A stretch of DNA of 64,000 nucleotides from Struthio camelus (Eukaryota). The notes under the pieces are model-generated. The model saw nothing but the letters and a program-made list of their open reading frames with translations. It ran no database searches and was not told the DNA's origin. Position numbers and translations under genes: made by a program. Positions within the stretch are counted from its first letter, which is position 1, and the number at the start of each line of letters is the position of its first letter. The stretch covers positions 981,853 to 1,045,852 of the forward strand of contig NC_090973.1 in NCBI RefSeq assembly GCF_040807025.1, read 5' to 3'. Below are positions 1 through 51,257 of this stretch, one piece after another.

Positions 1-1000
1 CTCTCCCCTTCCCCCCCAAACCCGGACGCCTGGGTCCCTCTCCCCTTCCCCCCCAACCCGGACGCCTGGGTCCCTCTCCCCTTCCCCCCCCAACCCGGAC
101 GCCTGGGTCCCTCTCCCCTTCCCCCCCCAACCCGGACGCCTGGGTCCCTCTCCCCTTCCCCCCCAACCCGGACGCCTGGGTCCCTCTCCCCTTCCCCCCC
201 CAACCCGGACGCCTGGGTCCCTCTCCCCGCCCCCCCCCAAACCCGGACGCCTGGGTCCCTCTCCCCGCCCCCCCCCAAACCCGGACGCCTGGGTCCCTCT
301 CCCCTTCCCCCCCAACCCGGACGCCTGGGTCCCTCTCCCCTTCCCCCCCCAACCCGGACGCCTGGGTCCCTCTCCCCTTCCCCCCCCAACCCGGACGCCT
401 GGGTCCCTCTCCCCTTCCCCCCCAACCCGGACGCCTGGGTCCCTCTCCCCGCCCCCCCCCAAACCCGGACGCCTGGGTCCCTCTCCCCGCCCCCCCCCAA
501 ACCCGGACGCCTGGGTCCCTCTCCCCGCCCCCCCCCAAACCCGGACGCCTGGGTCCCTCTCCCCGCCCCCCCCCAAACCCGGACGCCTGGGTCCCTCTCC
601 CCTTCCCCCCCCAAACCCGGACGCCTGGGTCCCTCTCCCCTTCCCCCCCCAAACCCGGACGCCTGGGTCCCTCTCCCCTTCCCCCCCCAAACCCGGACGC
701 CTGGGTCCCTCTCCCCTTCCCCCCCCAAACCCGGACGCCTGGGTCCCTCTCCCCCCCCCCAAACCCGGACGCCTGGGTCCCTCTCCCCTTCCCCCCCCAA
801 CCCGGACGCCTGGGTCCCTCTTCCCTTCCCCCCCCTAACCCGGACGCCTGGGTCCCTTTAACCCCTCCCCGGACCCCATGGGCAGGGGAGTGTGGGGCGT
901 TTCCCCGGACGCCTGGGCCCGTGGGGTGATGCGGGGTGTGATTCCCCGGACGCCTGGGCCCCGTGCCCGGACGCCGGGGTCCCCGCTGAGCCCCCCCCCC
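1..1000. repeat. ~40-bp tandem minisatellite (~21 clean copies to 845, degenerate to ~1000), unit ctctccccttcccccccaacccggacgcctgggtccct
   Basis: Direct tandem copies with C-run length variation. It abuts the ALDOA ATG-exon acceptor. Its core is the reverse complement of the GGGACCCAGGCGTCCGGG family seen at 10555-13130 and 17940-18330. Confidence 0.95.
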
Positions 1001-1023: not shown

Positions 1024-1135
1024 ATGCCGCACCAGTACCCGGCGCTGACGCCCGAGCAGAAGAAGGAGCTCGCCGACATCGCCCTGCGCATCGTCGCCCC
1101 CGGCAAGGGCATCCTCGCCGCCGATGAGTCCACCG
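1024..1135 (+). CDS. ALDOA: Fructose-bisphosphate aldolase A, coding exon 1 (start codon)
   Basis: Translates [37 protein letters not shown](G), near-identical to vertebrate ALDOA N-terminus. Kozak gccgccaccATGc. AG acceptor at 1011-1012 implies an upstream 5'UTR exon. GT donor at 1136. Confidence 0.92.
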
Positions 1136-1900
1136 GTGCGGCGCTGGGAGCACTGGGAGGGGAGCGGGGGGCACTGGGAGGGGATTGGGGGGCACCAGGT
1201 GGCGCTGGGAGGCACTGGGAGGGGACTGGGGGGTTCCCAGGTGGCACTGGGGGGCACTAGGGTGAGATCAGGGGCACTGGGGAGCACTGGGAGAAGATTG
1301 GGGGGCACTAGGTGGTGCTGGGAGGGGACTGGGAGGTGCTGGGAGGGGACTGGGGGCTCTCAGGTGGCACTGGGGGGCACTAGGGTGAGATCAGGGGCAC
1401 TAGGGAGCACTGGGAGAAGATTAGGGGGCACTAGGTGGTGCTGGGAGGGGACTGGGAGGCACTGGGAGGGGACTGGGGGCTCTCAGGTGGCACTGGGGGG
1501 CACTAGGGTGAGATCAGGGGCACTGGGGAGCACTGGGAAAAGAGCAGGGAGGCTGTGGGAGTGAATTGAGGGGCACTGGGTGACACTGGAAAGGGATTGG
1601 GGGGCACTAGGTGACACTGGGAGAGGAGTTGGGGCATTGGGAGGGGATCGGGAGGCAGTGGGTGACACTGGGGGAGGGACTGGGAGCACTGGGAGGAGAT
1701 CGGGGCACTGGGAGGGATCGGGAGGCAGTGGGTGATGCTGGGAGGGAATGGGGTGACATTAGGTGATACTGGGGAGGACTGGGAGGTCTTGGGAGGGGAT
1801 TGGGGGCACTGGGTGGGACTGGAAGTTGCTGGTGGAAGACTAGGAGGTTACTGGGGAGAACTACAAAAGCATTAGGAGGCACTGGGTGACGCTGGGAGGG
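1136..1900. repeat. ALDOA intron 1 G-rich minisatellite (ggcactgggagggga; ~122-bp higher-order unit x3 at 1244-1610)
   Basis: The first units, caccaggtggcgctgggagg at 1193-1213, copy the donor region caccggtgcggcgctgggag at 1130-1150. Confidence 0.9.
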
Positions 1901-2900
1901 CACTGGGTGACCCCAGGTGAGACCAGGAGGAGCCCAGGTGGCCCCAGGTGAGTCTGGGAGCACTGGGAGCCCCACAACCCCTGGCATCCCTGGTGCAACG
2001 GGAGCGTGGGTGCCACCAGGGTGCCCATGGGTGACCGCAGGTGACGCTGGGTGACCCCAGGGTGCCACTGGGGGTTACAGGGTGACCCCAGGTGAGACTG
2101 GGAGGCCCTGGGAGCACTGGGAGCCCCACAACCCCTGGCAACCCTGGTGCAACGGGAGCGTGGGTGCCACCAGGGTGCCCATGGGTGACTGCAGGTGACG
2201 CTGGGTGACCCCAGGGTGCCACTGGGGGTTACAGGGTGGCCCCAGGTGAAATCAGGAGGCCCTGGGAGCCCCACAACCCCTGGCAACCCTGGTGCAACAG
2301 GAGCGTGGGTGCCACCAGGGTGCCCATGGGTGACTACAGGCGACAGTGGGAGAGCCCAGGTGCCACTGGGGGTTTCTAGGTGGCCGCAGGTGGCCACCAG
2401 GTGGCCCCAGGTGAGACCGGGAGGCCCTGAGAGCGCTGGGAGCCCCACAACCCCTGGCAACCCTGGTGCAACGGGAGCGTGGGTGCCACCAGGGTGCCCA
2501 TGGGTGACTGCAGGTGACGCTGGGTGACCCCAGGGTGCCACTGGGGGTTACAGGGTGGCCCCAGGTGAAATCAGGAGGCCCTGGGAGCCCCACAACCCCT
2601 GGCAACCCTGGTGCAACAGGAGCGTGGGTGCCACCAGGGTGCCCATGGGTGACTGCAGGCGACAGTGGGAGAGCCCAGGTGCCACTGGGGGTTTCTAGGT
2701 GGCCGCAGGTGGCCACCAGATGGCCCCAGGTGAGACCGGGAGGCCCTGAGAGCGCTGGGAGCCCCACAACCCCTGGCAACCCTGGTGCAACGGGAGCGTG
2801 GGTGCCACCAGGGTGCCCATGGGTGACTGCAGGTGACGCTGGGTGACCCCAGGGTGCTACTGGGGGTTTCTAGGTGGCCCCAGGTGGCCACCAGGTGGCC
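1900..2900. repeat. 319-bp higher-order tandem repeat x3 (~160-bp subunit) in ALDOA intron 1
   Basis: The track shows identical 110-aa ORFs at 2195 and 2514, offset by 319 bp. A CTCF-like core CCACCAGGGTGCC recurs about 6 times. Confidence 0.9.
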
Positions 2901-3015
2901 CCAGGTGAGACCGGGAGGCCTTGGGAGCACCGGGAGCCCCGCAAAGCCCAGCCGCCTGGGGTGGCGTGGGTGCCGCGGGCGGCCCCGGCGGGTGACGCGG
3001 GCGGCCCCGGCGCAG

Positions 3016-3227
3016 GCAGCATCGCCAAGCGGCTGAGCTCGGTGGGGGCGGAGAACACGGAGGAGAACCGCCGCTGGTACCGCCAGCTGCTCTTCACGGC
3101 CGACCAGCGCGTCGACCCCTGCATCGGCGGCGTCATCCTCTTCCACGAGACCCTCTACCAGAAGGCCGACGACGGGCGCCCCTTCCCCGCCGTCATCCGC
3201 GCCAAGGGCGGCCTCGTCGGCATCAAG
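3016..3227 (+). CDS. ALDOA: ALDOA coding exon 2
   Basis: cag acceptor 3013-3015. Encodes [71 protein letters not shown]. Phase continues exon 1. GT donor 3228. Confidence 0.92.
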
Positions 3228-3239
3228 GTGGGGACGTCG

Positions 3240-4690
3240 GGGGGAGGCGGAGGCGTTGGGGAGATGGGGGGAAGTTGAGGGAACGTTGAGGGACGGTGGT
3301 GGACACAGAGATGTTGAGGGGATGCAGGGACGTTGGGGAGGCGTGGAGATGTTGAGGGAACGTTGGGGCACGGTGGTGGGCGCAGAGAGGTTGAGGGGAC
3401 GCAGGGGCGTTGGGGAGGCGTGGAGATGTTGAGGGAACGTTGGGGCACGGTGGTGGGCGCAGAGACGTTGAGGGGACGCAGGGACGTTGGGGAGATGTGG
3501 AGATGTTGAGGGAACGTTGGGGCACGGTGGTGGACGCAGAGAGGTTGAGGGGACGCAGGGACGTTGGGGAGATGTGGAGCCGTTGAGGGAACGTTGGGGG
3601 ACGGTGGTGGACGCAGAGATGTTGAGGGGACATTGGGGAGGCGTGGAGACGTTGAGGGAACGTTGGGGCACGGTGGTGGGCACAGAAGTTGAGGGGACGC
3701 ATGGACATTGGGGAGGTGTGGAGATGTTGAGGGAGCGTTGGGGGACGGTGGTGGACACACAGGTGTTGAGGGGACGCAGGGACGTTGGGGAGACACGGAG
3801 CCGTTGAGGGAACGTTGGGGGACGGTGGTGGATGCAGAGATGTTGAGGGGACGCAGGGATATTAGGGAGGCGTGGAGATGTTGAAGGAACGTTAGGGGAC
3901 AGTGGTGGACACGGAGAGGTTGAGGGGGACGTAAGGACGTTGGGGAGACGTGGAGCCGTTGGGGGACGGTGGTGGACGCAGAGATGTTGAGGGAACATTG
4001 GGGAGGCGTGGAGACGTTGAGGGAACGTTGGGGCATGGTGGTGGGCACAGAGAGGTTGAGGGGACGCAGGGACGTTGGGGAGGCGTGGAGATGTTGAGGG
4101 AGCGTTGGCGGACGTTGGTGGACACAGAGGTTGAGGGGACGCAGGGACGTTGGGGGGACGTGGAGCCGTTGAGGGAGCGTTGGGGGACGGTGATGTTGAT
4201 GGGATGCAAGGACGTTGGGGAGATGCGGAGACGTCGAGGGGACGTTGGGGGACATGGAGGTGACAGGATGTGCGGATGTTGGACACGGGGACACAAAGGG
4301 GACGCAAGGACGTCGGGGAGATGCAGAGCCGATTAGAGGACGTTGGGGGACACGGAGACGTGGATGCGACGTGGAGACGTTGGGGGGGGGACGTGGAGGG
4401 GACACTGGGGGACGTAGAGATGTGGAGGGGACGTGGGGATGTTGGGAGACAAGGAGACGTTGAGGGGACGTCGGGGGACGTGGAGACATGAAGGGGACGT
4501 AGGGACGATGGGGCACAAGGGGACATTGGGGACGTTGAGGGACACGGGGATGGTGGGGGAACGTAGTCTCAGAGTGGGGACATCGAGGGGACGTTGGGGG
4601 AGACAGGGACGTTGGGGGGATGTGGGGGACGTGGGGACGGGGTGGCCATGGAGCCAGGCCAGCTCCCAGTGACCGTGTCCCCGCGTCCCC
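3240..4690. repeat. ALDOA intron 2 ~80-bp G-rich minisatellite (gttgagggaacgttggggcacggtggtgggcgcagagaggttgaggggacgcagggacgttggggaggcgtggagat)
   Basis: About 18 tandem units. The subsequence ggtggtggacacagaggttgagggg resembles the exon-3 start ggtggacaagggggttgtg. Confidence 0.9.
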
Positions 4691-4701
4691 CCCCCCCCCA
4701 G

Positions 4702-4756
4702 GTGGACAAGGGGGTTGTGCCCCTGGCTGGCACCAATGGCGAGACCACCACCCAGG
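4702..4756 (+). CDS. ALDOA: ALDOA coding exon 3
   Basis: Polypyrimidine tract plus AG at 4700-4701. Encodes VDKGVVPLAGTNGETTTQ(G). gtgagt donor at 4757. Confidence 0.9.
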
Positions 4757-4759
4757 GTG

Positions 4760-6300
4760 AGTGACCGTCCCCGAGGGTGGCCTCATGTCCCTGCAAGGTC
4801 TCCAAGGGTGGCCCCGAGGGTGTCCCCATGTCCCCAAGGGTATTCCTAGGTCCTTAGGAAGTCCCCAAAGATGTCCTCAAGGGCTTCTCGGGTCCCCAAG
4901 GGCGTCCCCAGGTCCCCAAGGGCGTCCCTGAGGGCTTCCCTGTGTCCCCAAAGGGGTCCTCGTGTCCCCAAGAGGTTCTCTAGGGTATTTCGGTGTCCCC
5001 AGGTCCCCAAGGGTGTCCCCAAGGGGGTCCCTGTGTCCCCAAGCGGTGCCCAACATTGTTCCTGTGTCCTCATCGGCATCCCAGTGTCCCTGGCTGTGTC
5101 TGCGTGTCCCCAAGGCTGTCCCCGTGTCCCCGAAGCTGTCCCCAAGTCCTCTCTGCCTTCTCCACCTTCCCAAGGCTGTCCCCGTGTTCCCTATGTCATC
5201 TCTGTCTCTCCAACGCTGTCCCCAAGGCCATCTGTGTCCCCGACGCCATCCCCGTGGCTCTCCCCACGCGTTCCCTGCCACCATCCCCACCTCCTCGCCG
5301 GTGTCCCCAAGGCCGTCCCAGTGTCCCCAAGGCCATTGCCATCACCATCTCCATGCCTCTCCCTGCGCGGTCCCTGCTGGTGTCCCCGAGGCCATCCCCC
5401 AATGCCACCCCATGTCCCCGAGGCCATCTCCACGTCCCTACGGCCATCTCTGCGTCCCCAAACCCATGACTGACCCCATCTCTGTGGTTCAGTCCCCGCT
5501 GGTGTCCCCGAGGCCGTCCCCAAATGCCACCCCATGTCCCCTACGGCCATCTCTGCGTCCCCAAGCCCATGACCAACCGCATCTCCGTGGTTCAGTCCCC
5601 ACTGGTGTCCCCGAGGCCATCCCCCAATGCCACCCCATGTCCCCGAGGCCATCTCCACATCCCTACGGCCATCTCTGCGTCCCCAAGCCCATGACCAACC
5701 CCAACTCCGTGGTTCAGTCCCTGCTGGTGTCCCCGAGGCCATCCCCCAATGCCACCCCATGTCCCCGAGGCCATCTCCCACGTCCCTACGGCCATCTCTG
5801 CGTCCCCAAGCCCATGACCAACCGCATCTCCGTGGTTCAGTCCCCACTGGTGTCCCCGAGGCCGTCCCCAACTGCCACCCCATGTCCCCGAGGCCATCTC
5901 CACATCCCTACGGCCATCTCTGCGTCCCCAAGCCCATGACTGACCCCATCTCCGTGGTTCAGTCCCCACTGGTGTCCCCAAGGCCGTGCCCCAAGGCCAT
6001 CCCCATGTCCCCTACGGCCATCTCTGCGTCCCCAAACCCATGACTGACCCCATCTCCGTGGTTCAGTCCCTGCTGGTGTCCCCAAGGCCGTCCCCAACTG
6101 CCACCCCATGTCCCCGAGGCCATCTCCACATCCCTACGGCCATCTCTGCGTCCCCAAGCCCATAACCAACCCCATCTCCACGGTTCTCCATGGTCCCCGA
6201 GGCCATCTCCACGTCCCTACGGCCATCTCTGCGTCCCCAATGCTGCCCCCCGCCGTCGTCCTCGTGGCCGTGTCCCCCTCCCCCCCCCATCCCCACCCGC
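4760..6300. repeat. ALDOA intron 3 minisatellites: ~20-bp gtccccaagggtgtcccc (4780-5200) then ~120-bp unit containing ccatctctgcgtccccaagcccatgaccaacc (5200-6250)
   Basis: The periodicity shows in the repeated ORF peptides [23 protein letters not shown]. Confidence 0.9.
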
Positions 6301-6327
6301 GTCCCCACGGTGTCCCCGCGCGCCCAG

Positions 6328-6488
6328 GCCTGGACGGGCTGATGGAGCGCTGCGCCCAGTACAAGAAGGACGGGGCCGACTTCGCCAAGTGGCGCTGCGT
6401 GCTCAAGATCTCGGAGCACACGCCCTCGCGCCTCGCCATCATGGAGAACGCCAACGTCCTCGCCCGCTACGCCAGCATCTGCCAGCAG
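6328..6488 (+). CDS. ALDOA: ALDOA coding exon 4
   Basis: cag acceptor 6325-6327. Encodes [55 protein letters not shown] donor 6489. Confidence 0.92.
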
Positions 6489-6489
6489 G

Positions 6490-7335
6490 TCTGTCACCCC
6501 CGCCCCAGACGTGGCGTGGGGTGCCGGCGGGTCCCCGCCTCCTTTTGTCACCTGGGAGGGGTTGGAGAGCTCCCGGCGTCGGTGTGTCACCCCCTCCCGG
6601 GGGTGGCTGGGGACCTCCCGGCTGGGCTGTCGCGCCGGGACGCGATGCGGTGGCGTGTCCCTGCGTTCCCTCTCGTCACCCCGGGGTGGCCGGGGGTCTC
6701 CTGGCCGCGGCGCGGCGCCGGGACGCGACGTCGGTGGTGTCCTTGCGTCGCCTCTTGGCGCTCTGGGATGGCCGGAGATGTCCCGGCGGTGTCGTAGCGC
6801 CGGGATGTGGCCTTGGCGGCCTTCCCGCGTCACCTGCTGCCACCCCGAGGTGGCTGGGGATCTCCTGGCTGCGCTGTGGCACTGGGACGTGGCTTCGGCC
6901 ACGTCCCTGTGCCACCTGCTGCCACCTCGGGGTGGCTGGGGACATGCTGGTTCCACCGTGGTGCTGGGACGTGGTTTTGGTGGCGTTCCTGTGTCACCTC
7001 GGGATGGCTGGGGACTTCCTGGTTGTGTCGTGGTGCCAGGAGATGGCCTTGGCAGTGTCCCTGTGTCGCCTAGTGTCCCCTCCTGTCACCATGGGGTGGC
7101 TGGGGAGCTCCTGGCTGCGCTGTGACACCCAGACGTGGCTTTGGTAGCATCTCTGCGTCACTTGCTGTCACCCCCGGGGTGGCTGGGGGCCTCCTGGTTG
7201 TGCCGTGATGCCGGGACGCGGCCTTGGCGGGGCCCTTGTGTCACCTATTGTCACCCCGAGGGGGCTGGGCACCTCCTGGCTGTGGGTCCGTGTGCCCTTG
7301 TGTCGCCCCAGGGTGGCCGGCTGCCCCCAGGTGTC
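6490..7335. repeat. ALDOA intron 4 ~85-95-bp minisatellite (gtcacc..ggggtggctgggga.ctccyggctg.gctgt..cgccgggacg)
   Basis: About 9 units that start directly at the donor (gtctgtcaccc). Confidence 0.85.
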
Positions 7336-7371
7336 CTCGCACGTCCCCCAACTCGTGCCCTGTCCCCCCAG

Positions 7372-7455
7372 AACGGCATCGTCCCCATCGTGGAGCCCGA
7401 GATCCTCCCTGACGGCGACCACGACCTCAAGCGCTGCCAGTACGTCACGGAGAAG
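7372..7455 (+). CDS. ALDOA: ALDOA coding exon 5
   Basis: AG acceptor 7370-7371. Encodes [30 protein letters not shown] donor 7456. Confidence 0.92.
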
Positions 7456-7540
7456 GTGGGTGTCCCCGCGTTCCCCGCCGCGTCCCCAACCGCCTCCCTG
7501 TCCCCGCCGCGTCCGCAACGTGTCCCCGCCGCGTCCCCAG

Positions 7541-7715
7541 GTGCTGGCGGCCGTCTACAAGGCGCTGAGCGACCACCACGTCTACCTGGAGGGGACCCTG
7601 CTCAAGCCCAACATGGTGACGGCGGGTCACGCCTGTCCCAAGAAGTACAGCCCCGAGGAGATCGCCATGGCCACCGTCACTGCCCTGCGGCGCACCGTGC
7701 CACCCGCCGTCCCCG
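7541..7715 (+). CDS. ALDOA: ALDOA coding exon 6
   Basis: cag acceptor 7538-7540. Encodes [58 protein letters not shown](G). gtgag donor 7716. Confidence 0.92.
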
Positions 7716-7805
7716 GTGAGCCTCGGTGGCACCGGCGTGGCCCTGGGTTGGCCCCATCCCCTACGGCCGCGTCGCGCCGCGGCTGACGTCCCCGTCCCCG
7801 CGCAG

Positions 7806-8005
7806 GCATCACGTTCCTGTCCGGGGGCCAGAGCGAGGAGGAGGCGTCGCTGAACCTCAACGCCATCAACCGGTGCCCGCTGGCGCGGCCCTGGGCCCTG
7901 ACCTTCTCCTACGGGCGGGCGCTGCAGGCCTCGGCCCTGCGCGCCTGGGCCGGCAAGCGCGACAACACCAAGGCCGCCCAGGAGGAGTACGTCAAGCGCG
8001 CCCTG
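7806..8005 (+). CDS. ALDOA: ALDOA coding exon 7
   Basis: cag acceptor 7803-7805. Encodes (G)[66 protein letters not shown]. gtaggt donor 8006. Confidence 0.92.
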
Positions 8006-10330
8006 GTAGGTGGGGGGACGCGGCGGGGACGTGGGGATGGGGGTCGTGGTGGGACGTGGGTTCTGGTGGGACGTGGTGACATGGATTGTGGTGGGACGTG
8101 GGGATGGGTGTCGTGGTGGGAGGTGGAGGCAGGAGGACGGGGTGCTGGTGGGACGTGGTTGACATGAGGATAGCGGCTGTGGTGGGGCATGGGGACAGGG
8201 CTCCTGGTGGGATGTGGTGACATGGGGACAGGGGTGCTGGTGGGACAGGGTGATATGGGGACGGGGGTCATGGTGGGGCGTGGAGACATGAGGACAGGGG
8301 TGCTGGTGGGACATGAGGACATGGAGATGAAGGTCCTGGTGGGATGTGGTGACATGGGGATGGGGGTGCTGGTGGGACGTGGTGATGTGGGGACGGGGAT
8401 CCTGGTGGGACATGGGGACATGGAGGTCCTGGTGGGACGTGGGGACATGGGGACGGGGGTCGTGGTGGGACGTGGGGACATAGAGATGGAGGTCCTGGTG
8501 GAACGTGGTGACATGGGGATGGGGTGCTGGTGGGACGTGGGGACATGGAGATGGAGGTCCTGGTGGGATGTGGGGACATTGGGACGGGGGTCCTGGTGGG
8601 ATGTGGTGACGTGGGACGTGGTGACGTGGGGATGGAGGTCCTGGTGGGACGTGGGGACGGGGGTCCTGGTGGGACGTGGTGACGTGGGGACGGGGGTCGT
8701 GGTGGGACGTGGGGACGGAGGTCCTGGTGGGAGGTGGGGACGGGGGTGCTGGTGGGACGTGGGGACATTGGGACAGGGGTCGTGGTGGGGCATGAGGACA
8801 TGGGGACGGGGGTGCTGGTGGAACGTGAGGACGTGGGTGCTGGTGGGACATGGTGACATGGGGATGTGCGTCGTGGTGGGACGTGAGGACATGGGGATGT
8901 GGATTGTGGTGGGACGTGGGGACGGGGGTGCTGGTGGGACGTGGGGACGGGGGTGCTGGTGGGACGTGGGGACATGGAGATGGAGGTCCTGGTGGGACGT
9001 GGGGACGTGGGGATGGGGGTCGTGGTGGGACGTGGGGACATGGAGATGGAGGTCCTGGTGGGACGTGGTGACGTGGTGACGGGGGTCATGGTGGGACATG
9101 AGGACGTGGAGACGGAGGTCCTGGTGGGACGTGGGGACGGGGGTCGTGGTGGGACATGAGGACGTGGAGATGGAGGTCCTGGTGGGAGGTGGGGACGGGG
9201 GTCATGGTGGGACATGAGGACGTGGAGATGGAGGTCCTGGTGGGAGGTGGGGACGGGGGTCGTGGTGGGACATGAGGACGTGGAGATGGAGGTCCTGGTG
9301 GGAGGTGGGGACGTGGAGATGGAGGTCCTGGTGGGATGTGGGGACGTGGTGACGGGGGTCGTGGTGGGACATGAGGACGTGGAGATGAAGGTCCTGGTGG
9401 GACGTGGGGACGTGGAGATGGAGGTCCTGGTGGGACGTGGTGACGTGGTGATGGGGGTTGTGGTGGGACATGAGAACATGGAGATGGAGGTCCTGGTGGG
9501 AGGTGGTGACGGGGGTCGTGGTGGGACATGAGGACATGGAGATGGAGGTCCTGGTGGGACGTGGGGACGTGGAGATGGAGGTCCTGGTGGGACGTGGTGA
9601 CGGGGGTCATGGTGGGACATGAGGACGTGGAGACGGAGGTCCTGGTGGGACGGGGGGACGGGGGTCGTGGTGGGACATGAGGACGTGGAGATGGAGGTCC
9701 TGGTGGGACGTGGGGACGGGGGTCGTGGTGGGACACGAGGACGTGGAGATGGAGGTCCTGGTGGGACGTGGGGACGGGGGTTGTGGTGGGACGTGGGGGC
9801 ATGGAGATGAAGGTCCTGGTGGGACATAAGGACATGGGGACGTGGGTCGTGGTGGGACATGGGGACATGGGGACGTGGTGACGGGGGTCGTGGTGGGACA
9901 TGAGGACGTGGAGATGAAGGTCCTGGTGGGACATGAGAACATGGGGACGTGGGTCGTGGTGGGACATGGGGATGTGGGTCCTGGTGGGACATGGGGACAT
10001 GGGGACGGGGGTCGTGGTGGGACACGAGGACGTGGAGATGGAGGTCCTGGTGGGACGTGGTGATGTGGTGATGGGGGTTGTGGTGGGACATGAGAACGTG
10101 GAGATGGAGGTCCTGGTGGGACGTGGTGACGTGGTGATGGGGGTTGTGGTGGGACGTGAGGACGTGGAGATGGAGGTCCTGGTGGGACGTGGTGACGTGG
10201 TGATGGGGGTTGTGGTGGGACATGAGAACGTGGAGATGGAGGTCCTGGTGGGACGTGGTGACATGGGGACGGGGGTCCTGGTGGGACGGGGGGACGGGGG
10301 GAGCGCGGGCGTCCGCGGCGTGACGCGCGG
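8006..10330. repeat. ALDOA intron 7 G-rich minisatellite (ggaggtcctggtgggacgtggggacatggagat, 30/60-bp units with higher-order structure)
   Basis: The unit resembles the donor region gccctggtaggtggggggacg. It fills essentially the whole 2.3-kb intron. Confidence 0.9.
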
Positions 10331-10346
10331 CTCCCTGCGCCCGCAG

Positions 10347-10442
10347 GCCAACTCGCTGGCGTGCCAGGGCAAGTACGCGCCCAGCGGGCCGGCGGGGGCC
10401 GCCGCCAGCGAGTCCCTCTTCATCTCCAACCACGCCTACTGA
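10347..10442 (+). CDS. ALDOA: ALDOA terminal coding exon (stop TGA 10440-10442)
   Basis: cag acceptor 10344-10346. Encodes [31 protein letters not shown]. The 8 exons sum to 1095 nt, giving 364 aa as expected for ALDOA. Confidence 0.92.
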
Positions 10443-10511: not shown

Positions 10512-10554
10512 CGGCATCTGCCTCCGCACCCGCGTCTTGGGGGGCCCGGGCGGC

Positions 10555-13130
10555 CGGGGGAGGGGACCCAGGTGTCCGGGGAGGGGCCCAGGTGTCCGGG
10601 GAGGGGCCCAGGTGTCCGGGAGGGGCCCAGGTGTCCCGGAGGGAACCAAGCGTCTGTAATGGGCCCAGGTGTCCGGGGAGCGGCCCAGGCGTCCTGGAGG
10701 GACCCAGGTGTCCAGGAAGGGGCCCAGGCGTCCTGGAGGGACCCAGGTGTCCAGGGAGGGGGCCCAGGAGTCCAGGGAGGGGCCCAGGCATCCGGGGAGG
10801 GACCCAGGTGTCCAGGGAGGGGCCCTGGCGTCCGGGAGGGAACCAAGTGTCTGTAATGGGCCCAGCTGTCCGGGGAGGGACCCAGCTGTCCGGGGAGGGA
10901 CCCAGGCGTCTGAGAGGGGCCCAGGCATCCGGGAAGGGCCCAGGTGTCCTGGAAGGACCCAGGCGTCTGGGGAGGGGGCCCAGGAGTCCAGGGAAGGGCA
11001 GAGATGTCCGGAGAGGGGCCCAGGCGTCCCGGAGGGAACCAAGCGTCTGTAATGGGCCCAGGCATCTGGGAGGGACCCAGGTGTCCGGGGGAGGGGCCCA
11101 GGCGTCTGGGAGGGGCCCAGGCGTCCTGGAGGGACCCAGGTGTCCAGGAAGGGGCCCAGGCGTCCTGGAGGGACCCAGGCGTCCTGGAGGGACCCAGGAG
11201 TCCAGGGAGGGGCCCAGGCATCCGGGGAGGGACCCAGGTGTCCAGGGAGGGGCCCTGGCGTCCCGGAGGGAACCAAGTGTCTGTAATGGGCCCAGGTGTC
11301 CGGGGGGACCCAGGTGTCCGGGGAGGGGCCCAGGTGTCCGGGGAGGGGCCCAGGCGTCTGAGAGGGGCCCAGGCGTCCGGGAAGGGCCCAGGTGTCCGGG
11401 GGAGGGGGCCCAGGCGTCCGGGGACGGGGGCCCAAGCGTCCGGGAAGGACCAGGGCATCCGGGGAGGGCCCAGGTGTCCGGGAGGGCCCAGGCGTCCGGG
11501 GAGGAGGCCCAGGAGTCTGGGAAGGACCAGGGCATCCGGGAAGGGGCCCAGGTGTCCCGGAGGGAAGCAAGCGTCTGTAATGGGCCCAGGTGTCCGGGGA
11601 AGGGGCCCAGGTGTCCGGGGAGGGGCCCAGGTGTCCGGGAGGGGCCCAGGTGTCCGGGAGGGAACCAAGCGTCTGTAATGGGCCCAGGTGTCCGGGGAGC
11701 GGCCCAGGCGTCCTGGAGGGACCCAGGTGTCCAGGAAGGGGCCCAGGCGTCCTGGAGGGACCCAGGTGTCCAGGGAGGGGGCCCAGGAGTCCAGGGAGGG
11801 GCCCAGGCATCCGGGGAGGGACCCAGGCATCCGGGGAGGGGCCCTGGCGTCCCGGAGGGAACCAAGTGTCTGTAATGGGCCCAGGTGTCCGGGGAGGGAC
11901 CCAGCTGTCCGGGGAGGGGCCCAGGGGTCCGGGGAGGGGCCCAGGCATCCGGGGAGGGACCCAGGCGTCTGAGAGGGGCCCAGGCATCCGGGAAGGGCCC
12001 AGGTGTCCTGGAAGGACCCAGGCGTCTGGGGAGGGGGCCCAGGAGTCCGGGGAAGGGCAGAGATGTCCGGAGAGGGGCCCAGGCGTCCCAGAGGGAACCA
12101 AGCGTCTGTAATGGGCCCAGGTGTCCGGGGAGGGACCCAGGTGTCCGGGGAGGGGCCCAGGCGTCTGGGGAAGGGCCCAGGGAAGGGCCGAGGTGTCTGG
12201 GGAGGGACCTAGGTGTCTGGGAGGGGCCCTGGCATCCGGGAGGGACCCAGGCGGCTGGGAGGGCCCAGGCATCCGGGGAGGGGTCCAGGTGTCTGGGAGG
12301 GGCCCAGGCGTCCGGGAGGGGCCCAGGTGTCCGGGCAGGAAGGGGCCCAGGAGTCCAGGAGGGCCCAGGTGTTCGGGAGGGCCTAGGTGTCCAGGAAGGG
12401 GCCCAGGCGTCCGGGGAGGGACCGAGGTGTCTGGGGAGGGCCCAGGCATCCGGGGAGGGGCCCAGGCGTCCGGGAAGGACCCAGGTGTCCTGACAAGGAC
12501 CCAGGAGTCCGGGGAGGGGCCCAGGTGTCCGGGAGGGGCCCAGGCGTCCGGGGGGACCCAGGTGTCCGGGGAGGGACCCAGGCATCTGGGGAGGGACCCA
12601 GGAGTTCGGGAGGGGCCCAGGCATCCGGGAGGGGCCCAGGAGTCCAGGGAAGGACCCAGGCATCTGGGAGGGACCCAGGTGTCTGGGAGGGGCCCAGGTG
12701 TCCAGGAGGGGCCCAGGCGTCCGGGAGGGGCCCAGGCATCCAGGGAGGGGCCCAGGCATCCAGGGAGGGGCCCAGGAGTCCAGGGAAGGACCCAGGTGTC
12801 CGGGAGGGGCCCAGGCATCTGGGAGGGACCCAGGTGTCCGGGAGGGGCCCAGGCATCTGGGAGGGACCCAGGCGTCCGGGGAGGGGCCCAGGCGTCCGGG
12901 GAGGGGCCCAGGAGTCCGGGAGGGGCCCAGGAGTCCGGGGAAGGACCCAGGTGTCCGGGAAGGACCCAGGAGTCCGGGAGGGACCCAGGAGTCCGGGGAA
13001 GGACCCAGGCGTCCGGGGAGGGGCCCAGGCGTCCGGGGAGGGGCCCAGGCGTCCGGGGAGGGGCCCAGGTGTCCTGGAGGGCCCAGGCGCCCTGGGGAAG
13101 GGCCCAGGCGTCCGGGGAGCCCCCGGCGAG
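10555..13130. repeat. Intergenic ~21-bp minisatellite (gggacccaggcgtccggggag / ggggcccaggtgtccgggga), >110 copies, punctuated by gggaaccaagcgtctgtaatgggcccagg
   Basis: Direct tandem array with ~1-kb higher-order similarity (ORFs at 10592 and 11590). It is the same family, in inverted orientation, as the array at 1-1000. Confidence 0.95.
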
Positions 13131-16099: not shown

Positions 16100-16197
16100 A
16101 TGGGGGAGCCGAGCGACCTGGACCGGCAGATCGAGCAGCTGCGGCGCTGCGAGCTCATCAAGGAGAGCGAGGTGAAGGCCCTCTGCGCCAAGGCCAG
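16100..16197 (+). CDS. PPP4C: Serine/threonine-protein phosphatase 4 catalytic subunit, coding exon 1 (start codon)
   Basis: Encodes [32 protein letters not shown](R), which I recognise as the PPP4C N-terminus (human [33 protein letters not shown]). gtaccc donor at 16198. Confidence 0.92.
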
Positions 16198-16319
16198 GTA
16201 CCCCGGGGGGGGGGGCAATTAACCCCCGCACGGGGGTAATTAACCCCCACCGGGCTCGTTAGCCCCTCGGCGGGGCAATTAACCCGCCGGCGGGCCGCTG
16301 ACGAAGGGCCGTCCCGCAG

Positions 16320-16371
16320 GGAGATCCTGGTGGAGGAGAGCAACGTGCAGCGGGTGGACTCGCCCGTGACG
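16320..16371 (+). CDS. PPP4C: PPP4C coding exon 2
   Basis: cag acceptor 16317-16319. Encodes (R)EILVEESNVQRVDSPVT. gtgagc donor 16372. Confidence 0.9.
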
Positions 16372-16488
16372 GTGAGCGGGGCGATTAGCGGGGCTAATTA
16401 GGCCTCGGAGGGGGTAATTAGGGCTTGGAGGGGGTAATTAGGGGGCGGATTTGCCCCCCTCACCCCCCCGTTTTGCCCCCCCGCCCAG

Positions 16489-16539
16489 GTGTGCGGCGAC
16501 ATCCATGGGCAGTTTTACGACCTCAAGGAGCTCTTCCGG
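16489..16539 (+). CDS. PPP4C: PPP4C coding exon 3
   Basis: cag acceptor 16486-16488. Encodes [17 protein letters not shown]. gtgagt donor 16540. Confidence 0.9.
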
Positions 16540-16544
16540 GTGAG

Positions 16545-17832
16545 TCGCCCTGCTAATTGCCCCCCGCCCCGACTTAATTACCCCCCAGTAGACCCCCCCA
16601 CGCTTAGTTAGTCCTATCGGTGTTTAATTACCCTTTTTCAGTAGCCGATTATCTCTGATTGTTTGTTATCTGCTTAATTAGTGCCTGATGTGCGATTATC
16701 ACTCCGCTTTTTAACTCTTCTCGCTTAATTACCCCCTTAATTGACCTCCCTTTTTAATTGCACCCCCTTAATTGCCCCCAGTTCAGGCTTGACTGCCCCC
16801 CAACCGCTCATTGCCCCCCCTAATTGCTGCCCTGGTTGCTAATTATTCCCATGGTTGTTAATTGCCCCCCAGGCTATTTGTCCCTGTTGTTGTTTCTTAT
16901 CTTTAGTTGTTCCTGTTAATTATCTTTTCTGGGCTTAATTGCCCCCCCCCACTGCTAATTGCTCTCTGATTATGAGTTATTTATGTGGTCCTCAATTAGC
17001 CCTGGCTCCTAATTGCTCCTTTGCCTCGTTAGTTTGCTAGTTTGAGGCCTAATTGCCCCTAATGGCTGCCTAATTGCCCCTGCTAATTGCCCCACAAGCC
17101 CTAGTTGCCTCTGTAGTTGCCCCTGATTACGTGTTAATTGCTCTTCTCAGTCCCTAATTGCTCCCCTGGGTTTCCCCCACCCACTCCTAATTGCTCTAGA
17201 GCCCCTAATTGCCCCCCCCCATGCCCAACAGCCCCCCCCCAAATTGCCCCCCCAGCCTTGAATTGCCCCTTCAGCACCTTTTTGGCTCCCCTGGAGCTAA
17301 TTATCTCCCTAATTGCCCCATCACTAATTGCCCCTCCCAGCCGCAAATAGCTTCCCCGATTATCTCTCAGTTGCTAATTATCCTCTTAATTGCCTCCCCC
17401 AGCCCCTACTTGCCCCCGCTAGCCCTAATTGCCCCCCCCAACTCCTCCCAGGCCCTAATTACTCCCTTAATTGCCCCCCGGTCCCAAATATCCCCCCGAA
17501 TTGCCCCCGAGCTCCTAGCTGCTCCTTTCAGCCTTTTTTGCCCCCGTAATTGCCCCGTAGCCCTTAATTACTGTCTTAATTACCCCCCCCGGCCCCTAAC
17601 TGCTTCCCTTAGACCTATTTGCTGCTGTAATTGCCCCGTAGCTGCTAATCACCCCCTTAATTACCCCCCCCAGCCCCAGACAGCTTTCCCTAATTATTAA
17701 TTAGGTGTTTTGTTTGCTTGGGGTGGGGGGGGGGGCTTGGTAGCTTCCTTAATTGCTCTGTGGGCCGTAATTACCTGCCTAATTGCTCTGCTCAGTCCCT
17801 AATTGCTTTCCTCCCTAATTACCCCCCCCCCG
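16545..17832. repeat. C-strand (inverted) version of the same motif field: ~50 copies of (c)ctaattgcccc / cttaattacccc in PPP4C intron 3
   Basis: cccctaattgcccc is the reverse complement of ggggcaattagggg. Orientation flips at ~16455-16470, just upstream of exon 3. The region is relatively AT-rich. Confidence 0.85.
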
Positions 17833-17835
17833 CAG

Positions 17836-17937
17836 GTGGGGGGTGACGTCCCCGAGACCAACTACCTGTTCATGGGCGACTTCGTGGACCGGGGCTTCTA
17901 CAGCGTCGAGACCTTCCTGCTGCTCCTCGCCCTCAAG
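17836..17937 (+). CDS. PPP4C: PPP4C coding exon 4
   Basis: cag acceptor 17833-17835. Encodes [34 protein letters not shown] (metallophosphatase GDxVDRG motif). GT donor 17938. Confidence 0.92.
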
Positions 17938-17939
17938 GT

Positions 17940-18330
17940 GGGGCCCAGGCGTCCGGGAGGGATGAGGAGGGACCCAGGTGTCCGGGCCGGGGGGGGGGAC
18001 AGGAGGGTAGGAAAGAGGGGCCCAGGTGTCCGGGAGGAGCCAGGCCCCTTTGTGTGCAAACCAAATGTCTGGTGGGGGGGGGGGAGGGTGTCTGGAGCAA
18101 GAAGGGGCCCAGGCGTCCGGGGAGGGACCCAGGCGTCCTGGTGACATTCAAGCGTCTGGAGTGAGAAGGGATCCAGGCATCCGGGGAGGGGTCCCAGGTG
18201 TCCGGGGTTGGGGGACGGGGACCCAAGTGTCCAGGAGGCTTCCAGGTGCCTGGGACCAGAGGGGACCCAGGCGTCCGGGGCGGGGGGGAAGGACCCAGGC
18301 GTCCGGGAGGACCCAGACGTGCGGGCGCCG
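17940..18330. repeat. Block of the gggacccaggcgtccggg(ga) minisatellite family inside PPP4C intron 4
   Basis: It has the same unit as 10555-13130 and about 12 copies. Confidence 0.85.
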
Positions 18331-18333
18331 CAG

Positions 18334-18507
18334 GTGCGCTACCCCGACCGCATCACGCTGATCCGGGGCAACCACGAGAGCCGGCAGATCACGCAGGTCT
18401 ACGGCTTCTACGACGAGTGCCTGCGCAAGTACGGCTCCGTCACCGTCTGGCGCTACTGCACCGAGATCTTCGACTACCTCAGCCTCTCCGCCATCATCGA
18501 CGGCAAG
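18334..18507 (+). CDS. PPP4C: PPP4C coding exon 5
   Basis: cag acceptor 18331-18333. Encodes [58 protein letters not shown] (GNHE motif). gtgagc donor 18508. Confidence 0.92.
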
Positions 18508-18529
18508 GTGAGCGCCCCCCCGGGGCCTG

Positions 18530-20750
18530 CGGGTAGCCCCGCGGCGCTCCTGCGGGGTGGCTGTGCTGCACACGCTAAGCACACGCTAAGAACATGCATG
18601 TTGTGTCGCACGTTCTGCTCACCCGGGACCTCCCTGTGTCCATCCGTGCTGCCCCAGGGTGCTTGGGTAGCCCCGCGGCGCTCCTGCGGGGTGGCTATGC
18701 CGCACACGCTAAGCACACGCTAAGCACATGGGTGTCGCACGCTGTGCTGTGCTCACCCGGGACCTGCCCGTGTCCCTCCGTGCTGCCCCAGGGTGCTTGG
18801 GTAGCCCCGTGGCGCTCCTGCGGGGTGGCTATGCCGCACACGCTAAGCACACGCTAAGCACATGGGTGTCGCACGCTGTGCTGTGCTCACCTGGGACCTC
18901 CCTGTGTCCCTCCGTGCTGCCCCAGGGTGCTTGGGTAGCCCCGCGGCGCTCCTGCGGGGTGGCTGTGCCGCACACGCTAAGCACACGCTAAGCACATGGG
19001 TGTCGCACGCTGTGCTGTGCTCACCTGGGACCTGCCCGTGTCCATCCGTGCTGCCCCAGGGTGCTTGGGTAGCCCCGCAGCGCTCCTGCGGGGTGGCTGT
19101 GCTGCACATGCTAAGCACACACTAAAAACATGCATGTTGTGTCGCACGTTCTGCTCACCTGGGACCTGCCCATGTCCATCCGTGCTGCCCCAGGGTGCTT
19201 GGGTAGCCCCGCGGCGCTCCTGCGGGGTGGCTGTGCCGCACACGCTAAGCACACACTAAGCACATGGGTGTCGCACACTGTGCTGTGCTCACCCGGGACC
19301 TGCCCGTGTCCATCCGTGCTGCCCCAGGGTGCTTGGGTAGCCCCGCGGCGCTCCTGTGGGGGGGGCTGTGCCGCACACGCTAAGCACACGCTAAAAACAT
19401 GCATGTTGTGTTGCACGTTCTGCTCACCCGGGACCTGCCCGTGTCCCTCCGTGCTGCCCCAGGGTGCTTGGGTAGCCCCGTGGCGCTCCTGCGGGGTGGC
19501 TATGCCGCACACGCTAAGCACACGCTAAGCACATGGGTGTCGCACGCTGTGCTGTGCTCACCCGGGACCTGCCCGTGTCCCTCCGTGCTGCCCCAGGGTG
19601 CTTGGGTAGCACCGCGGCGCTCCTGCGGGGTGGCTGTGCCGCACACGCTAAGCACACGCTAAAAACATGCATGTTGTGTCGCACGTTCTGCTCACCCGGG
19701 ACCTGCCCGTGTCCCTCCGTGCTGCCCCAGGGTGCTTGGGTAGCCCCGTGGCGCTCCTGTGGGGGGGCTGTGCCGCACACGCTAAGCACACGCTAAAAAC
19801 ATGCATGTTGTGTCGCACGTTCTGCTCACCCGGGACCTGCCCGTGTCCCTCCGTGCTGCCCCAGGGTGCTTGGGTAGCCCCGCGGCGCTCCTGCGGGGTG
19901 GCTGTGCCGCACACGCTAAGCACACGCTAAGCACATGGGTGTCGCACGCTGTGCTGTGCTCACCCGGGACCTCCCTGTGTCCATCCGTGCTGCCCCAGGA
20001 TGCTTGGGTAGCCCCGTGGCGCTCCTGCGGGGTGGCTATGCCGCACACGCTAAGCACACGCTAAGCACATGGGTGTCGCACGCTGTGCTGTGCTCACCTG
20101 GGACCTGCCTGTGTCCATCCGTGCTGCCCCAGGGTGCTTGGGTAGCCCCGCGGCGCTCCTGCGGGGTGGCTGTGCCGCACACGCTAAGCACACGCTAAGC
20201 ACATGGGTGTCGCACGCTGTGCTGTGCTCACCTGGGACCTGCCCGTGTCCATCCGTGCTGCCCCAGGGTGCTTGGGTAGCCCCGCAGCGCTCCTGCGGGG
20301 TGGCTGTGCCGCACATGCTAAGCACACGCTAAAAACATGCATGTTGTGTTGCACGTTCTGCTCACCCGGGACCTGCCCGTGTCCCTCCGTGCTGCCCCAG
20401 GGTGCTTGGGTAGCCCCGTGGCGCTCCTGTGGGGTGGCTATGCCGCACACGCTAAGCACACGCTAAGCACATGGGTGTCGCACGCTGTGCTGTGCTCACC
20501 CGGGACCTGCCCGTGTCCATCCGTGCTGCCCCAGGGTGCTTGGGTAGCCCCGTGGCGCTCCTGTGGGGTGGCTATGCCGCACACGCTAAGCACACGCTAA
20601 GCACATGGGTGTCGCACGCTGTGCTGTGCTCACCCGGGACCTGCCCGTGTCCATCCGTGCTGCCCCAGGGTGCTTGGGTAGCCCCGCGGCGCTCCTGCGG
20701 GGGGGCTGTGCCGCACACGCTAAGCACACGCTAAGCACACGCATGTTAGG
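18530..20750. repeat. 134-bp tandem repeat x~16.5 in PPP4C intron 5
   Basis: Identical 87-aa ORFs recur every 134 bp on both strands. The unit ...gcacacgctaagcacatgggtgtcgcacgctgtgctgtgctcacccgggacctg... resembles the acceptor/exon-6 start cacgctaagcacacgcgtgtgccgtgcagATTTTCTGCGTGCACGGGGGCCTG. Confidence 0.95.
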
Positions 20751-21032
20751 CACCTTACTGTGCACCTTGCGTGTCCCTACGCGTGGCCACGTCGTTCTGA
20801 GGTACAGCGTAGGCCCCTCTTCCTTCTTGCAGGCCGAGTGTGCAGCACATACTAAGCACATGCTAAGCACACGCGTGTTGCATGCCCAACTTACACTGCC
20901 GCAGAGCCTAAGGGCTGGGCAGCGGGCCGGGGGCGCCCTGCGGTGACACGGGAAAGCCCGGCGGGGTGGGGGGGAAGGCCGGCGGGGGGCCGGCGGCACG
21001 GCCCACGCTAAGCACACGCGTGTGCCGTGCAG

Positions 21033-21159
21033 ATTTTCTGCGTGCACGGGGGCCTGTCGCCCTCCATCCAGACGCTGGACCAGATCCGCACCATCGACCG
21101 CAAGCAGGAGGTGCCCCACGACGGCCCCATGTGCGACCTGCTCTGGTCCGACCCCGAAG
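21033..21159 (+). CDS. PPP4C: PPP4C coding exon 6
   Basis: cag acceptor 21030-21032. Encodes [42 protein letters not shown](G). gtaggc donor 21160. Confidence 0.92.
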
Positions 21160-21164
21160 GTAGG

Positions 21165-22400: not shown

Positions 22401-22404
22401 GCAG

Positions 22405-22594
22405 ACACCACGGGCTGGGGCGTGTCCCCGCGCGGCGCCGGCTACCTCTTCGGCAGCGACGTGGTGGCCCAGTTCAACGCGGCCAACGACATCGACATGA
22501 TCTGCCGGGCCCACCAGCTCGTCATGGAGGGCTACAAGTGGCACTTCGGCGAGACCGTCCTCACCGTCTGGTCCGCCCCCAACTACTGCTACCG
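22405..22594 (+). CDS. PPP4C: PPP4C coding exon 7
   Basis: cag acceptor 22402-22404. Encodes (D)[62 protein letters not shown](R). gtgagg donor 22595. Confidence 0.92.
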
Positions 22595-22599
22595 GTGAG

Positions 22600-25500: not shown

Positions 25501-26010
25501 CGAGGACGGGGACAGCGGGACGCGACTGGGGACAGGAGGACATGGCTAGGGACAGGTCGAGGGGGACATGACCGAGGACGGGGACAGCGGGACGCGACTG
25601 GGGACAGGGACGGAGGAGATGTGACCGAGGACGAGGAGAATGAGGACAAGGGGAACGTGACCGAGGACGGGAACAGGGGGAACGTGACCGGGGACGAGGT
25701 GACATGACCAGGGATGGGGTGAACATGAGCAGGGCCGAGGTGACATGACCGAGGACGGGGGGAACGTGACCGGGTATGGGTGAACATGATCAGGGCCGAG
25801 GTGACGTGACCGAGGACGGGGGGAACGTGACCGGGGATGGGTGAACATGTCCAGGGCCGAGGTGACATGATCAGGGCCGAGGTGACATGACCGAGGACGG
25901 GGGGAACGTGACCAGGGACGAGGTGACATGACCAGGGCCGAGGTGACGTGACCGAGGACGGGGGGAACGTGACCAGGGATGGGTGAACATGATGAGGGAC
26001 GAGGTGACAT
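22600..26010. repeat. PPP4C intron 7 ~31-bp G-rich minisatellite (gacatgaccgaggacgggatggggacatgggggg) with 250-315-bp higher-order units
   Basis: It has about 100 units, and the ORF track shows RDGDMGGHD periodic peptides. It fills the 3.5-kb intron. Confidence 0.95.
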
Positions 26011-48917: not shown

Positions 48918-48919
48918 GT

Positions 48920-51245: not shown

Positions 51246-51257
51246 CGCCCCCCGCAG

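Follow-up and report, generated by a model that had tools for sequence, protein, structure and literature searches.

What fills the long introns of GC-rich bird genes with tandem repeats, and are these repeats copied from the splice junctions that they adjoin? The question is raised by a 64,000-nt stretch of Struthio camelus DNA (RefSeq assembly GCF_040807025.1, contig NC_090973.1, forward-strand positions 981,853 to 1,045,852; hereafter the window), which carries ALDOA, PPP4C and the 5′ half of SRCAP. A sequence-only reading had proposed that introns of all three genes begin or end with arrays copied from their own splice-junction flanks by slippage or unequal exchange nucleated at exon edges, possibly driven by R-loops or G-quadruplexes (G4), and that the same may be general in GC-rich avian genes. 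We find it probable, instead, that tandem repeats amplified locally within limits set by selection on exons and splice signals, and that now and then a founding duplication took in a junction. We base this on the anatomy and boundaries of the arrays, a depletion of repeats at junctions, a single breakpoint shared by exon copies and a pattern that extends across species, each observed directly. The phenomenon is the published 'sequence stuttering' of avian dot-chromosome genes (Hron et al. 2026, Genome Biol Evol 18:evag038, PMC12954441; bioRxiv 2025.09.16.676548, September 2025), together with its exon-copying form; it is already known and is not a new mechanism.

Tandem arrays fill long introns and intergenic DNA alike

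Arrays called by Tandem Repeats Finder (TRF) make up 71% of the window, in intergenic DNA as well as in genes, and in most long introns their share exceeds 80%, which bears out the claim of a locus-wide phenomenon in all three genes; the islands that TRF leaves unmasked are mainly exons. Periods run from 10 to 319 nt at 56-97% match, and units are often stacked into higher-order repeats (21 into 123 nt, 154 into 319 nt, ~100 into ~660 nt). Introns that have not expanded measure 76-134 nt. Repeat coverage in ALDOA starts 8 nt past the donor of intron 1 without entering the exon, weakly at +2 and strongly at +26 in intron 2, where it ends 65 nt short of the acceptor, and at +19 in intron 7, where it ends 45 nt before the acceptor. 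SRCAP intron 17 contains TGTCACC 25 times.

Many introns carry, by TRF, a second array in contact with neither junction, and three arrays (1-857, 10541-13119 and 13329-15163) are intergenic. Most arrays are specific to one intron. The array that begins 2 nt past the donor of PPP4C intron 4 belongs to a dispersed family and is not local to its intron: a mismatch scan for the GGRCCCAGGYGTCCGGG family found ~10 copies there and 140 elsewhere, namely 114 on the plus strand in the ALDOA-PPP4C interval and 26, inverted, that precede ALDOA. The orthologous intron of Cygnus atratus is 86 nt long and lacks the GGRCCCAGGYGTCCGGG array.

Counted in either orientation, two motifs are abundant, at 8 or more per kb: GGGGAC/GTCCCC in 9 of the 22 long introns, GGTGAC/GTCACC in 7. 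This recurrence hints at a common proto-motif under otherwise unrelated arrays. The 85-nt ALDOA intron 5 (7456-7540), with a TRF coverage of 0.86, consists almost wholly of GTCCCC(A/G) acceptor-like repeats, and its 81-nt Cygnus counterpart (locus L005, 5301-5381) has the same make-up; both look like incipient arrays within minimal introns.

Junction flanks resemble the arrays but are depleted of repeats

Taking the 22 long introns, we compared each of their 43 junction flanks with every long-intron interior and profiled repeat coverage base by base, requiring at least three BLAST high-scoring segment pairs (HSPs). If exon edges nucleated the arrays, through slippage or unequal exchange from splice junctions driven by R-loops or by G4 on the non-template strand, the arrays would be mainly junction-derived, and part of the evidence leans that way. 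Twelve of the 22 long introns have repeats that start between +2 and +26 from the donor, and a thirteenth (SRCAP intron 1) has them from within the exon, so that the claim that arrays reach junctions stands for these donors, as it does for the 6 acceptors, of only 21, that repeats approach to within 27 nt. Donor flanks are repeated more often than acceptor flanks (p = 0.03), an asymmetry that favors nucleation at donors and that also fits the sizes of the signals to be spared: a few bases suffice at the donor, whereas branch point and polypyrimidine tract take up 20-60 nt at the acceptor.

Intron-side flanks of 30 nt favored their own intron: it ranked first at 19 of 43 junctions, and its mean rank was 5.4 where 11.5 would be expected (z = -6.3). 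Aligning intron ends to their own interior, as the sequence-only reading had suggested, does therefore reveal an own-intron preference. What it does not reveal is enrichment over random intronic positions, the lack of which that reading had itself named as the outcome that speaks against it: 30-nt windows were repeated elsewhere in their own intron for 88% of interior positions, 41% of donor-adjacent positions and 29% of acceptor-adjacent positions, so that junction windows are depleted relative to random interior ones (Mann-Whitney p = 2.5e-8 for donors and 1.8e-10 for acceptors). Exon-side flanks of 12, 20 or 30 nt showed no preference for their own intron (z from -0.2 to +0.6), and an exact 7-mer junction-seed test in four species found no overall enrichment (11 of 102 in own introns against 113 of 1416 in the null from other introns). 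Repeat coverage crosses into an exon at two junctions only, the donor of SRCAP intron 1 (33 nt) and the acceptor of SRCAP intron 15 (14-38 nt into exon 16); none crosses a junction into an ALDOA or PPP4C exon, where the profile holds a single isolated HSP, in PPP4C exon 7, that is not contiguous with the junction.

The same two junctions stand out when 12 exon nucleotides are appended to the 30-nt intron query and the rise in score is compared with a null. This exon gain exceeded the null only at the donor of SRCAP intron 1 (11) and the acceptor of SRCAP intron 15 (10 of 12, a value that none of 29 null flanks and none of 200 shuffles reached), and both of these are real junction-spanning units. 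The examples spelled out in the sequence-only reading gave exon gains that do not exceed the null. In ALDOA intron 1, said to hold units that copy the donor, the donor caccggtgcggcgctgggag lies at 1131-1150 and the matching caccaggtggcgctgggagg at 1193-1212, but the latter occurs once and so is no repeated unit, and the exon gain of 0.5 falls under the null mean. The claimed copy of the donor in ALDOA intron 7 is well represented (ggaggtcctggtgggacgtgggga seven times and its core GTCCTGGTGGGAC 21 times, all within intron 7), with a marginal exon part (gain 4, p ~0.1, for CCTG^GT against the unit; the caret marks the splice junction). The array of ALDOA intron 4 does approach its donor, gtctgtcacc occurring at 6489, two HSPs starting at +2 and the flank ranking first for its own intron, yet the exon adds nothing significant (gain 1.5). 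Likewise, the unit of PPP4C intron 5 resembles the acceptor region of exon 6 through a CAYGCTAAGC core before that exon and units that reach -10, with an exon gain of 0, and the SRCAP array after 62088 does begin close to gtgagtgtcacc, found at 62088, with an exon gain of 2.5 that is not significant. The proposed likeness of the ALDOA intron 2 unit to the start of exon 3 is not significant (acceptor exon gain 4), and the array ends 65 nt upstream. In ALDOA and PPP4C, then, the arrays adjoin junctions whose flanks are array-like, but exon sequence in them is not demonstrable here.

We also ran a published screen for exon stuttering, which asks for exon matches in the adjacent intron, with the source at the exon border and copies in direct tandem. 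Applied as by Hron et al. (blastn-short, at least 20 nt and at least 42.1 bits; the maximum among 20 shuffles per intron was 40.1 bits), it was passed only by the SRCAP exon ending at 36378, which matched its adjacent intron 1 seven times at up to 65.9 bits with positions 147-179 of its 179 nt, and ALDOA and PPP4C exons gave no qualifying match in any intron. The exon part of the SRCAP exon 16 copies, at 10-18 nt, lies under the 20-nt cut-off; the junction-spanning unit itself is plain, with HSPs 64-92 nt long at 85-99% identity.

Two SRCAP junctions were duplicated together with exon sequence

SRCAP intron 1 holds ~20 copies of a ~93-nt unit made of 33 exon nucleotides, GTGAGT and ~60 intron nucleotides, arranged in a ~660-nt higher-order repeat, and 17 of 19 aligned copies keep the GT. 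In the copy at 37004, whose decoy donor falls at 37037, 92 of 93 positions agree with the real junction; the 33 exon nucleotides and GTGAGT are identical, and the lone mismatch is intronic. Every full copy has the same left breakpoint, 36346, at -33, and the block 36346-36999 recurs at 37004-37675 with 92% identity along 672 nt, which makes the authentic exon end itself the first unit of the higher-order repeat. A single left breakpoint combined with a higher-order repeat indicates one founding duplication over the junction followed by amplification, rather than repeated nucleation. We also considered an origin of the SRCAP exon copies by reverse transcription and ruled it out, as the copies run directly on into intron sequence. 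At the other end of an intron, the unit of SRCAP intron 15 comprises a CTCAC branch-like site, a polypyrimidine tract and an AG followed by the opening 10 nt of exon 16 (GATGCTGCAG); each copy contains these 10 exon nucleotides, or 18 if the C-run that follows is counted.

As to what might drive nucleation, the coding strand is G-rich in 13 long introns and C-rich in 5, a surplus that counts in its favor. SRCAP intron 1, the largest exon-copying array, has only 0.4 canonical G4 motifs per kb; three long introns, ALDOA intron 4 and SRCAP intron 17 among them, lack such motifs on both strands, and another two lack them on the coding strand. G4 or R-loops are thus not supported as a general cause. 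The two junction-spanning SRCAP arrays and the junction-like cores described below speak for nucleation at exon edges; the depletion at junctions, the indifference of exon-side flanks, the intergenic and junction-free arrays, the dispersed PPP4C intron 4 family and the single SRCAP breakpoint speak against it, and we regard it as unlikely.

Exon copies and array motifs in other birds

We compared gap-free loci of Melozone crissalis (L002), Chamaea fasciata (L003), Neopsephotus bourkii (L004) and Cygnus atratus (L005). In Melozone, the last ~60 nt of SRCAP exon 9 occur in 14 copies and the last 77 nt of exon 12 in 10, the GT being mostly kept, and both exons are clean in the window; these copies lie at 8503-10990 and 18186-19967 of L002, donors included. 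Chamaea has five near-identical copies of the last ~52 nt of ALDOA exon 1 with the donor and one copy of the end of exon 6, Neopsephotus has one copy of the end of PPP4C exon 7, and exon copies were not detected at the Cygnus locus. Exon stuttering thus recurs in a lineage-specific manner at differing junctions of the same genes, the donor of ALDOA exon 1 included. These copies, and the genome-wide findings for chicken dot chromosomes (PMC12954441), uphold the suggestion that the phenomenon is general in GC-rich avian genes.

The lengths of orthologous introns differ between birds by up to ~27-fold, from 81-90 nt to 1.1-2.4 kb, and their repeats are nevertheless recognizably related. Between the window and Cygnus, 7 of 9 orthologous introns are reciprocal best 8-mer matches (median cosine 0.104 against 0.013). 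ACTGG occurs 20-57 times per kb in ALDOA intron 1 of all four of the four birds scored and is near zero in the other ALDOA introns, except intron 7 of Chamaea, and a 21-nt unit, GGCACTGGGAGGG(G)ACTGGG, is common to the window and Cygnus at the donor end of intron 1. GGGGAC marks ALDOA introns 2 and 7 and GTCCCC marks introns 3 and 5 in several species. The window, Cygnus and Chamaea all show the GTCCCC enrichment in intron 3, and the window, Cygnus and Neopsephotus show one of GCTAA[GC] in PPP4C intron 5. The strand polarity of array motifs is also common to orthologous introns of distant birds.

Several array cores equal junction-proximal sequences that are kept between birds, namely CCACTG^GT, AAG^GTGGGGAC, GTGTCCCCAG^G and CAYGCTAAGCACACGCGTGT…CAG^. 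By junction, ACTG^G pairs with the donor of ALDOA intron 1, GTGGGGAC with the donor of intron 2, GTGTCCCCAG with the acceptors of introns 3 and 5, and CAYGCTAAGC with the sequence before PPP4C exon 6. The junction of ALDOA exon 1 reads CCACTG^GT in Cygnus and Chamaea; the exon in the window reads CCACCG, though its arrays keep ACTGG. Judged by this likeness, the data give qualified support to a shared ancestry of arrays and junction flanks, and the concurrence of ACTGG with the ALDOA exon 1 junction, together with the Chamaea copies of that exon end, speaks for nucleation at exon edges.

A different account of the same conservation is that the arrays, or the splice-like motifs in them, are kept because they are useful, as G-run splicing enhancers or as decoy sites that recruit U1 and U2 to long GC-rich introns, so that their likeness to flanks would itself be selected. 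G-triplets are known intronic splicing enhancers in GC-rich introns. Intron-specific motifs and polarity are conserved between distant birds, GTGAGT is intact in 17 of 19 copies of SRCAP intron 1, and a polypyrimidine tract and AG are present in all copies of SRCAP intron 15, as usefulness would have it. Copy number and unit sequence vary widely between species, however, identical array types occur in intergenic DNA, and some orthologous introns remain unexpanded at 81-90 nt, which marks the arrays as dispensable. The length polymorphism of chicken introns (PMC12954441) argues for neutrality as well. We consider selection for usefulness very unlikely.

A model of amplification between spared splice signals

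We propose that local tandem duplication and unequal exchange turn nearly all non-exonic DNA of a GC-rich locus into imperfect arrays with units of 10-320 nt, while purifying selection would preserve exons and core splice signals. Selection on splice signals would explain why arrays come within a few bases of the donor but as a rule stay at least several tens of bases clear of the acceptor, where the sparing of the branch point and polypyrimidine tract would set the limit. Ancestral introns were probably very short, like the unexpanded ones here, and hence mostly splice-signal flank; with flank as the raw material, amplification would yield arrays of donor-, acceptor- or branch-point-like motifs. 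Occasionally a founding duplication may straddle the exon boundary, and an exon fragment with its splice site would then be amplified with the array, an event that presumably survives because the authentic first donor or last acceptor still yields a correct mRNA.

We hold this account of amplification between spared signals to be probable, and several points weigh against it. We infer, rather than observe directly, the mutational process (slippage or unequal exchange under high recombination), and likewise the role of selection and the origin from short introns. The arrays of Struthio camelus are seen here in one assembled haplotype. The surplus of G-rich over C-rich introns leaves room for a transcription-linked bias. 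The SRCAP model lacks one exon in 48724-51257, and that intron is only partly assessed. Finally, intron-specific motifs that last between distant birds fit less easily with the purely recent, independent expansions suggested by Hron et al., and their persistence could mean continual re-seeding from constrained junction flanks, which comes nearer to the idea of the sequence-only reading. It is possible, in our view, though less likely than not, that the arrays are more than recent, species-specific expansions and that the core motif and polarity of each intron's repeat family have persisted, or have been repeatedly re-seeded from the splice-signal flank, over most of avian evolution.

Gene models and array coordinates

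The coding exons are intact throughout: the ALDOA and PPP4C frames are uninterrupted, the SRCAP exons are in frame, and all introns are GT-AG (Table 1). Spliced ALDOA translates into a 364-aa aldolase A without interruption, with up to 95% identity to bird ALDOA proteins and 94% across the full length. We built the PPP4C model by tblastn with splice-junction optimization, using human PPP4C as the query, and mapped SRCAP with filtered tblastn matches (human SRCAP query) and bird fragments of up to 670 aa; a search without the low-complexity filter was swamped by proline-rich matches and discarded. The SRCAP frame demands a further exon between 48724 and 51257, unless the exon ending at 48723 uses a different donor. 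We found no acidic reading frame that matches human SRCAP residues ~350-425 in 48724-51257, before the exon starting at 51258; within this stretch, 49700-51058 is C-rich yet carries no tandem-repeat flag. The gene content corresponds to chicken chr38, where Hron et al. (PMC12954441) place PPP4C and ALDOA.

Table 1 Features of the window and their coordinates
Feature	Coordinates	Strand	Description
Intergenic 38-nt array	1..985	-	23 copies at 1-857 plus degenerate copies; family of the 10.5-13.1 kb array, inverted (TRF)
ALDOA coding region	1024..10442	+	8 exons: 1024-1135, 3016-3227, 4702-4756, 6328-6488, 7372-7455, 7541-7715, 7806-8005, 10347-10442
ALDOA intron 1	1136..3015	+	Array A ~1144-1900, 21-nt units (GGCACTGGGAGGGGACTG) in a 123-nt higher-order repeat; array B 1937-2907, 154/319-nt units (TRF)
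ALDOA intron 2	3228..4701	+	G-rich 77/221-nt array 3254-4636, GGGGAC core (TRF)
ALDOA intron 3	4757..6327	+	C-rich arrays 4805-6308, GTCCCCAAGG units; higher-order repeats of 103/122/245 nt (TRF)
ALDOA intron 4	6489..7371	+	Loose 72-82-nt TGTCACC-bearing units from the donor to ~7071 (TRF rows 6596-7071)
ALDOA intron 7	8006..10346	+	G-rich 25/33/58-nt array 8025-10302 (GGGGTCCTGGTGGGACGTGGGGAC) (TRF)
Intergenic 19/20/39-nt array GGGGCCCAGGCGTCCGGGGA	10541..13119	+	~130 copies between ALDOA and PPP4C (TRF)
PPP4C coding region	16100..26242	+	8 exons: 16100-16197, 16320-16371, 16489-16539, 17836-17937, 18334-18507, 21033-21159, 22405-22594, 26113-26242
PPP4C intron 4	17938..18333	+	~10 interspersed GGRCCCAGGYGTCCGGG-family copies from donor +2 (sequence and mismatch scan, coverage profile)
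PPP4C intron 5	18508..21032	+	Array ~18531-20742 plus acceptor-proximal units to -10; core CACGCTAAGC, branch-point-like
SRCAP 5′ half	~36.2 kb to window end	+	17 exons placed, GT-AG for every intron
SRCAP donor-side exon stuttering (intron 1)	36346..40709	+	Source: terminal 33 nt (…THAEIAEQAKH) of the exon that ends at 36378, with its donor GTGAGT at 36379
SRCAP acceptor-side exon stuttering (intron 15)	60465..60872	+	Unit ~80-92 nt; real junction at 60855 preceded by four copies, with decoy acceptors at ~60513, ~60593, ~60672 and ~60763
SRCAP intron 17 (truncated at the window end)	62088..64000	+	C-rich TGTCACC array from +4 (one HSP) or +14 (three HSPs) of donor gtgagtgtcacc

These models also bear on whether the arrays or exon copies were mis-assembled from difficult GC-rich long-read data. 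The region is extremely GC-rich and repetitive, and where a short-read contig of Apteryx rowi (PTFB01001897.1) matches the window at 52.5-59.8 kb, SRCAP exons agree at 97-99.5% identity, which suggests a close palaeognath relative, and N makes up 55% of the contig, precisely at array positions, so that arrays are not comparable there. Mis-assembly is nonetheless most improbable: the copies are diverged (75-99% identity) and set in ordered higher-order repeats, unlike collapsed or duplicated reads, all gene models are intact with GT-AG introns, four independent gap-free bird assemblies show the same architecture, and the chicken structures were verified by raw nanopore reads (PMC12954441).

An additional gene at 26.3-36 kb was considered, but the reading frames seen there were only low-complexity and GC-rich. 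Rfam and tRNA scans gave no matches. A short AT-rich island with A/T homopolymers (…TTATATATTTTTTTTTCTGG…AAAAAAAAGAGAAAAAAAAGAG…) lies 3′ of PPP4C at 27270-27400, in surroundings of ~70% GC.

Relation to known systems

Hron et al. (PMC12954441) describe chicken dot-chromosome introns full of imperfect local tandem blocks and, in a subset that they call exon stuttering, the lateral part of an exon copied with its splice donor or acceptor through the adjacent intron, with a source that in over 90% of cases lies no more than 1 nt from the exon border. Their screen yielded 236 exon-stuttering introns, 190 of them on dot chromosomes, and their Fig. S5 lists PPP4C (chr38:1990507-2022945) and ALDOA (chr38:2050188-2105567). 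They report extensive intron length polymorphism in chicken, with structures checked against raw nanopore reads, float G4 or replication stress, or meiotic gene conversion, as mechanisms, and suggest that repeat clusters, differing in structure and sequence, expanded independently. The window agrees in its tandem-filled introns, in the minority that copy an exon edge with its splice site, in the source at the exon border, in its GC-richness and in the very genes listed. It is not the chicken locus, and it differs in its gene spans, in that by their screen only SRCAP and neither ALDOA nor PPP4C stutters exons here, in the GGRCCCAGGYGTCCGGG family that spans PPP4C intron 4 and two intergenic arrays, and in core motifs that are conserved between distant birds.

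Other repeat systems are more remote. GC-rich minisatellites of vertebrates (variable number tandem repeats) grow and shrink at hotspots of recombination, through unequal exchange or gene conversion. They share with the arrays units of 10-100 nt, GC-richness, imperfect copies with higher-order structure and, as is generally known, an association with high recombination; the arrays here, by contrast, extend through the intergenic DNA and almost all long introns of an entire locus, run up against splice sites and in some cases hold exon fragments with splice sites that look functional. Y-linked fertility genes of Drosophila (Fingerhut and Yamashita 2022, cited by Hron et al.) likewise have introns made mostly of tandem repeats between intact exons, but theirs are megabase simple satellites common to several genes and not local, intron-specific units, and no exon-edge copies are described for them. 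An extremely GC-rich gene cluster of gerbils (Hargreaves et al. 2017) is said by Hron et al. to show the same intron pattern, data not shown (PMC12954441); it shares a GC-biased, recombination-associated runaway composition and repetitive introns, in a mammalian lineage.

Significance for bird genes

As the 2026 publication already names ALDOA and PPP4C, our finding is an independent rediscovery. To it we add a clean negative for nucleation at exon edges, the observation that exon stuttering shifts between junctions of one gene across bird lineages and, as a modest new point, the deep conservation of intron-specific repeat motifs between distant birds, which qualifies the published view of independent expansion. 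Exon stuttering also contaminates automated annotation, since the public SRCAP-like model P0004 of Melozone translates some exon copies and so repeats a stuttered 21-letter peptide three times. The gaps of the Apteryx rowi contig show how such introns are lost from short-read assemblies, and arrays of this kind help to explain bird genes long believed 'missing'. Judging from their sequence, essential bird genes appear to carry dozens of perfect decoy splice sites inside them; and if the repeat families have indeed persisted or been re-seeded, the arrays would amount to fossil junction sequences, long-lived and evolving in concert.

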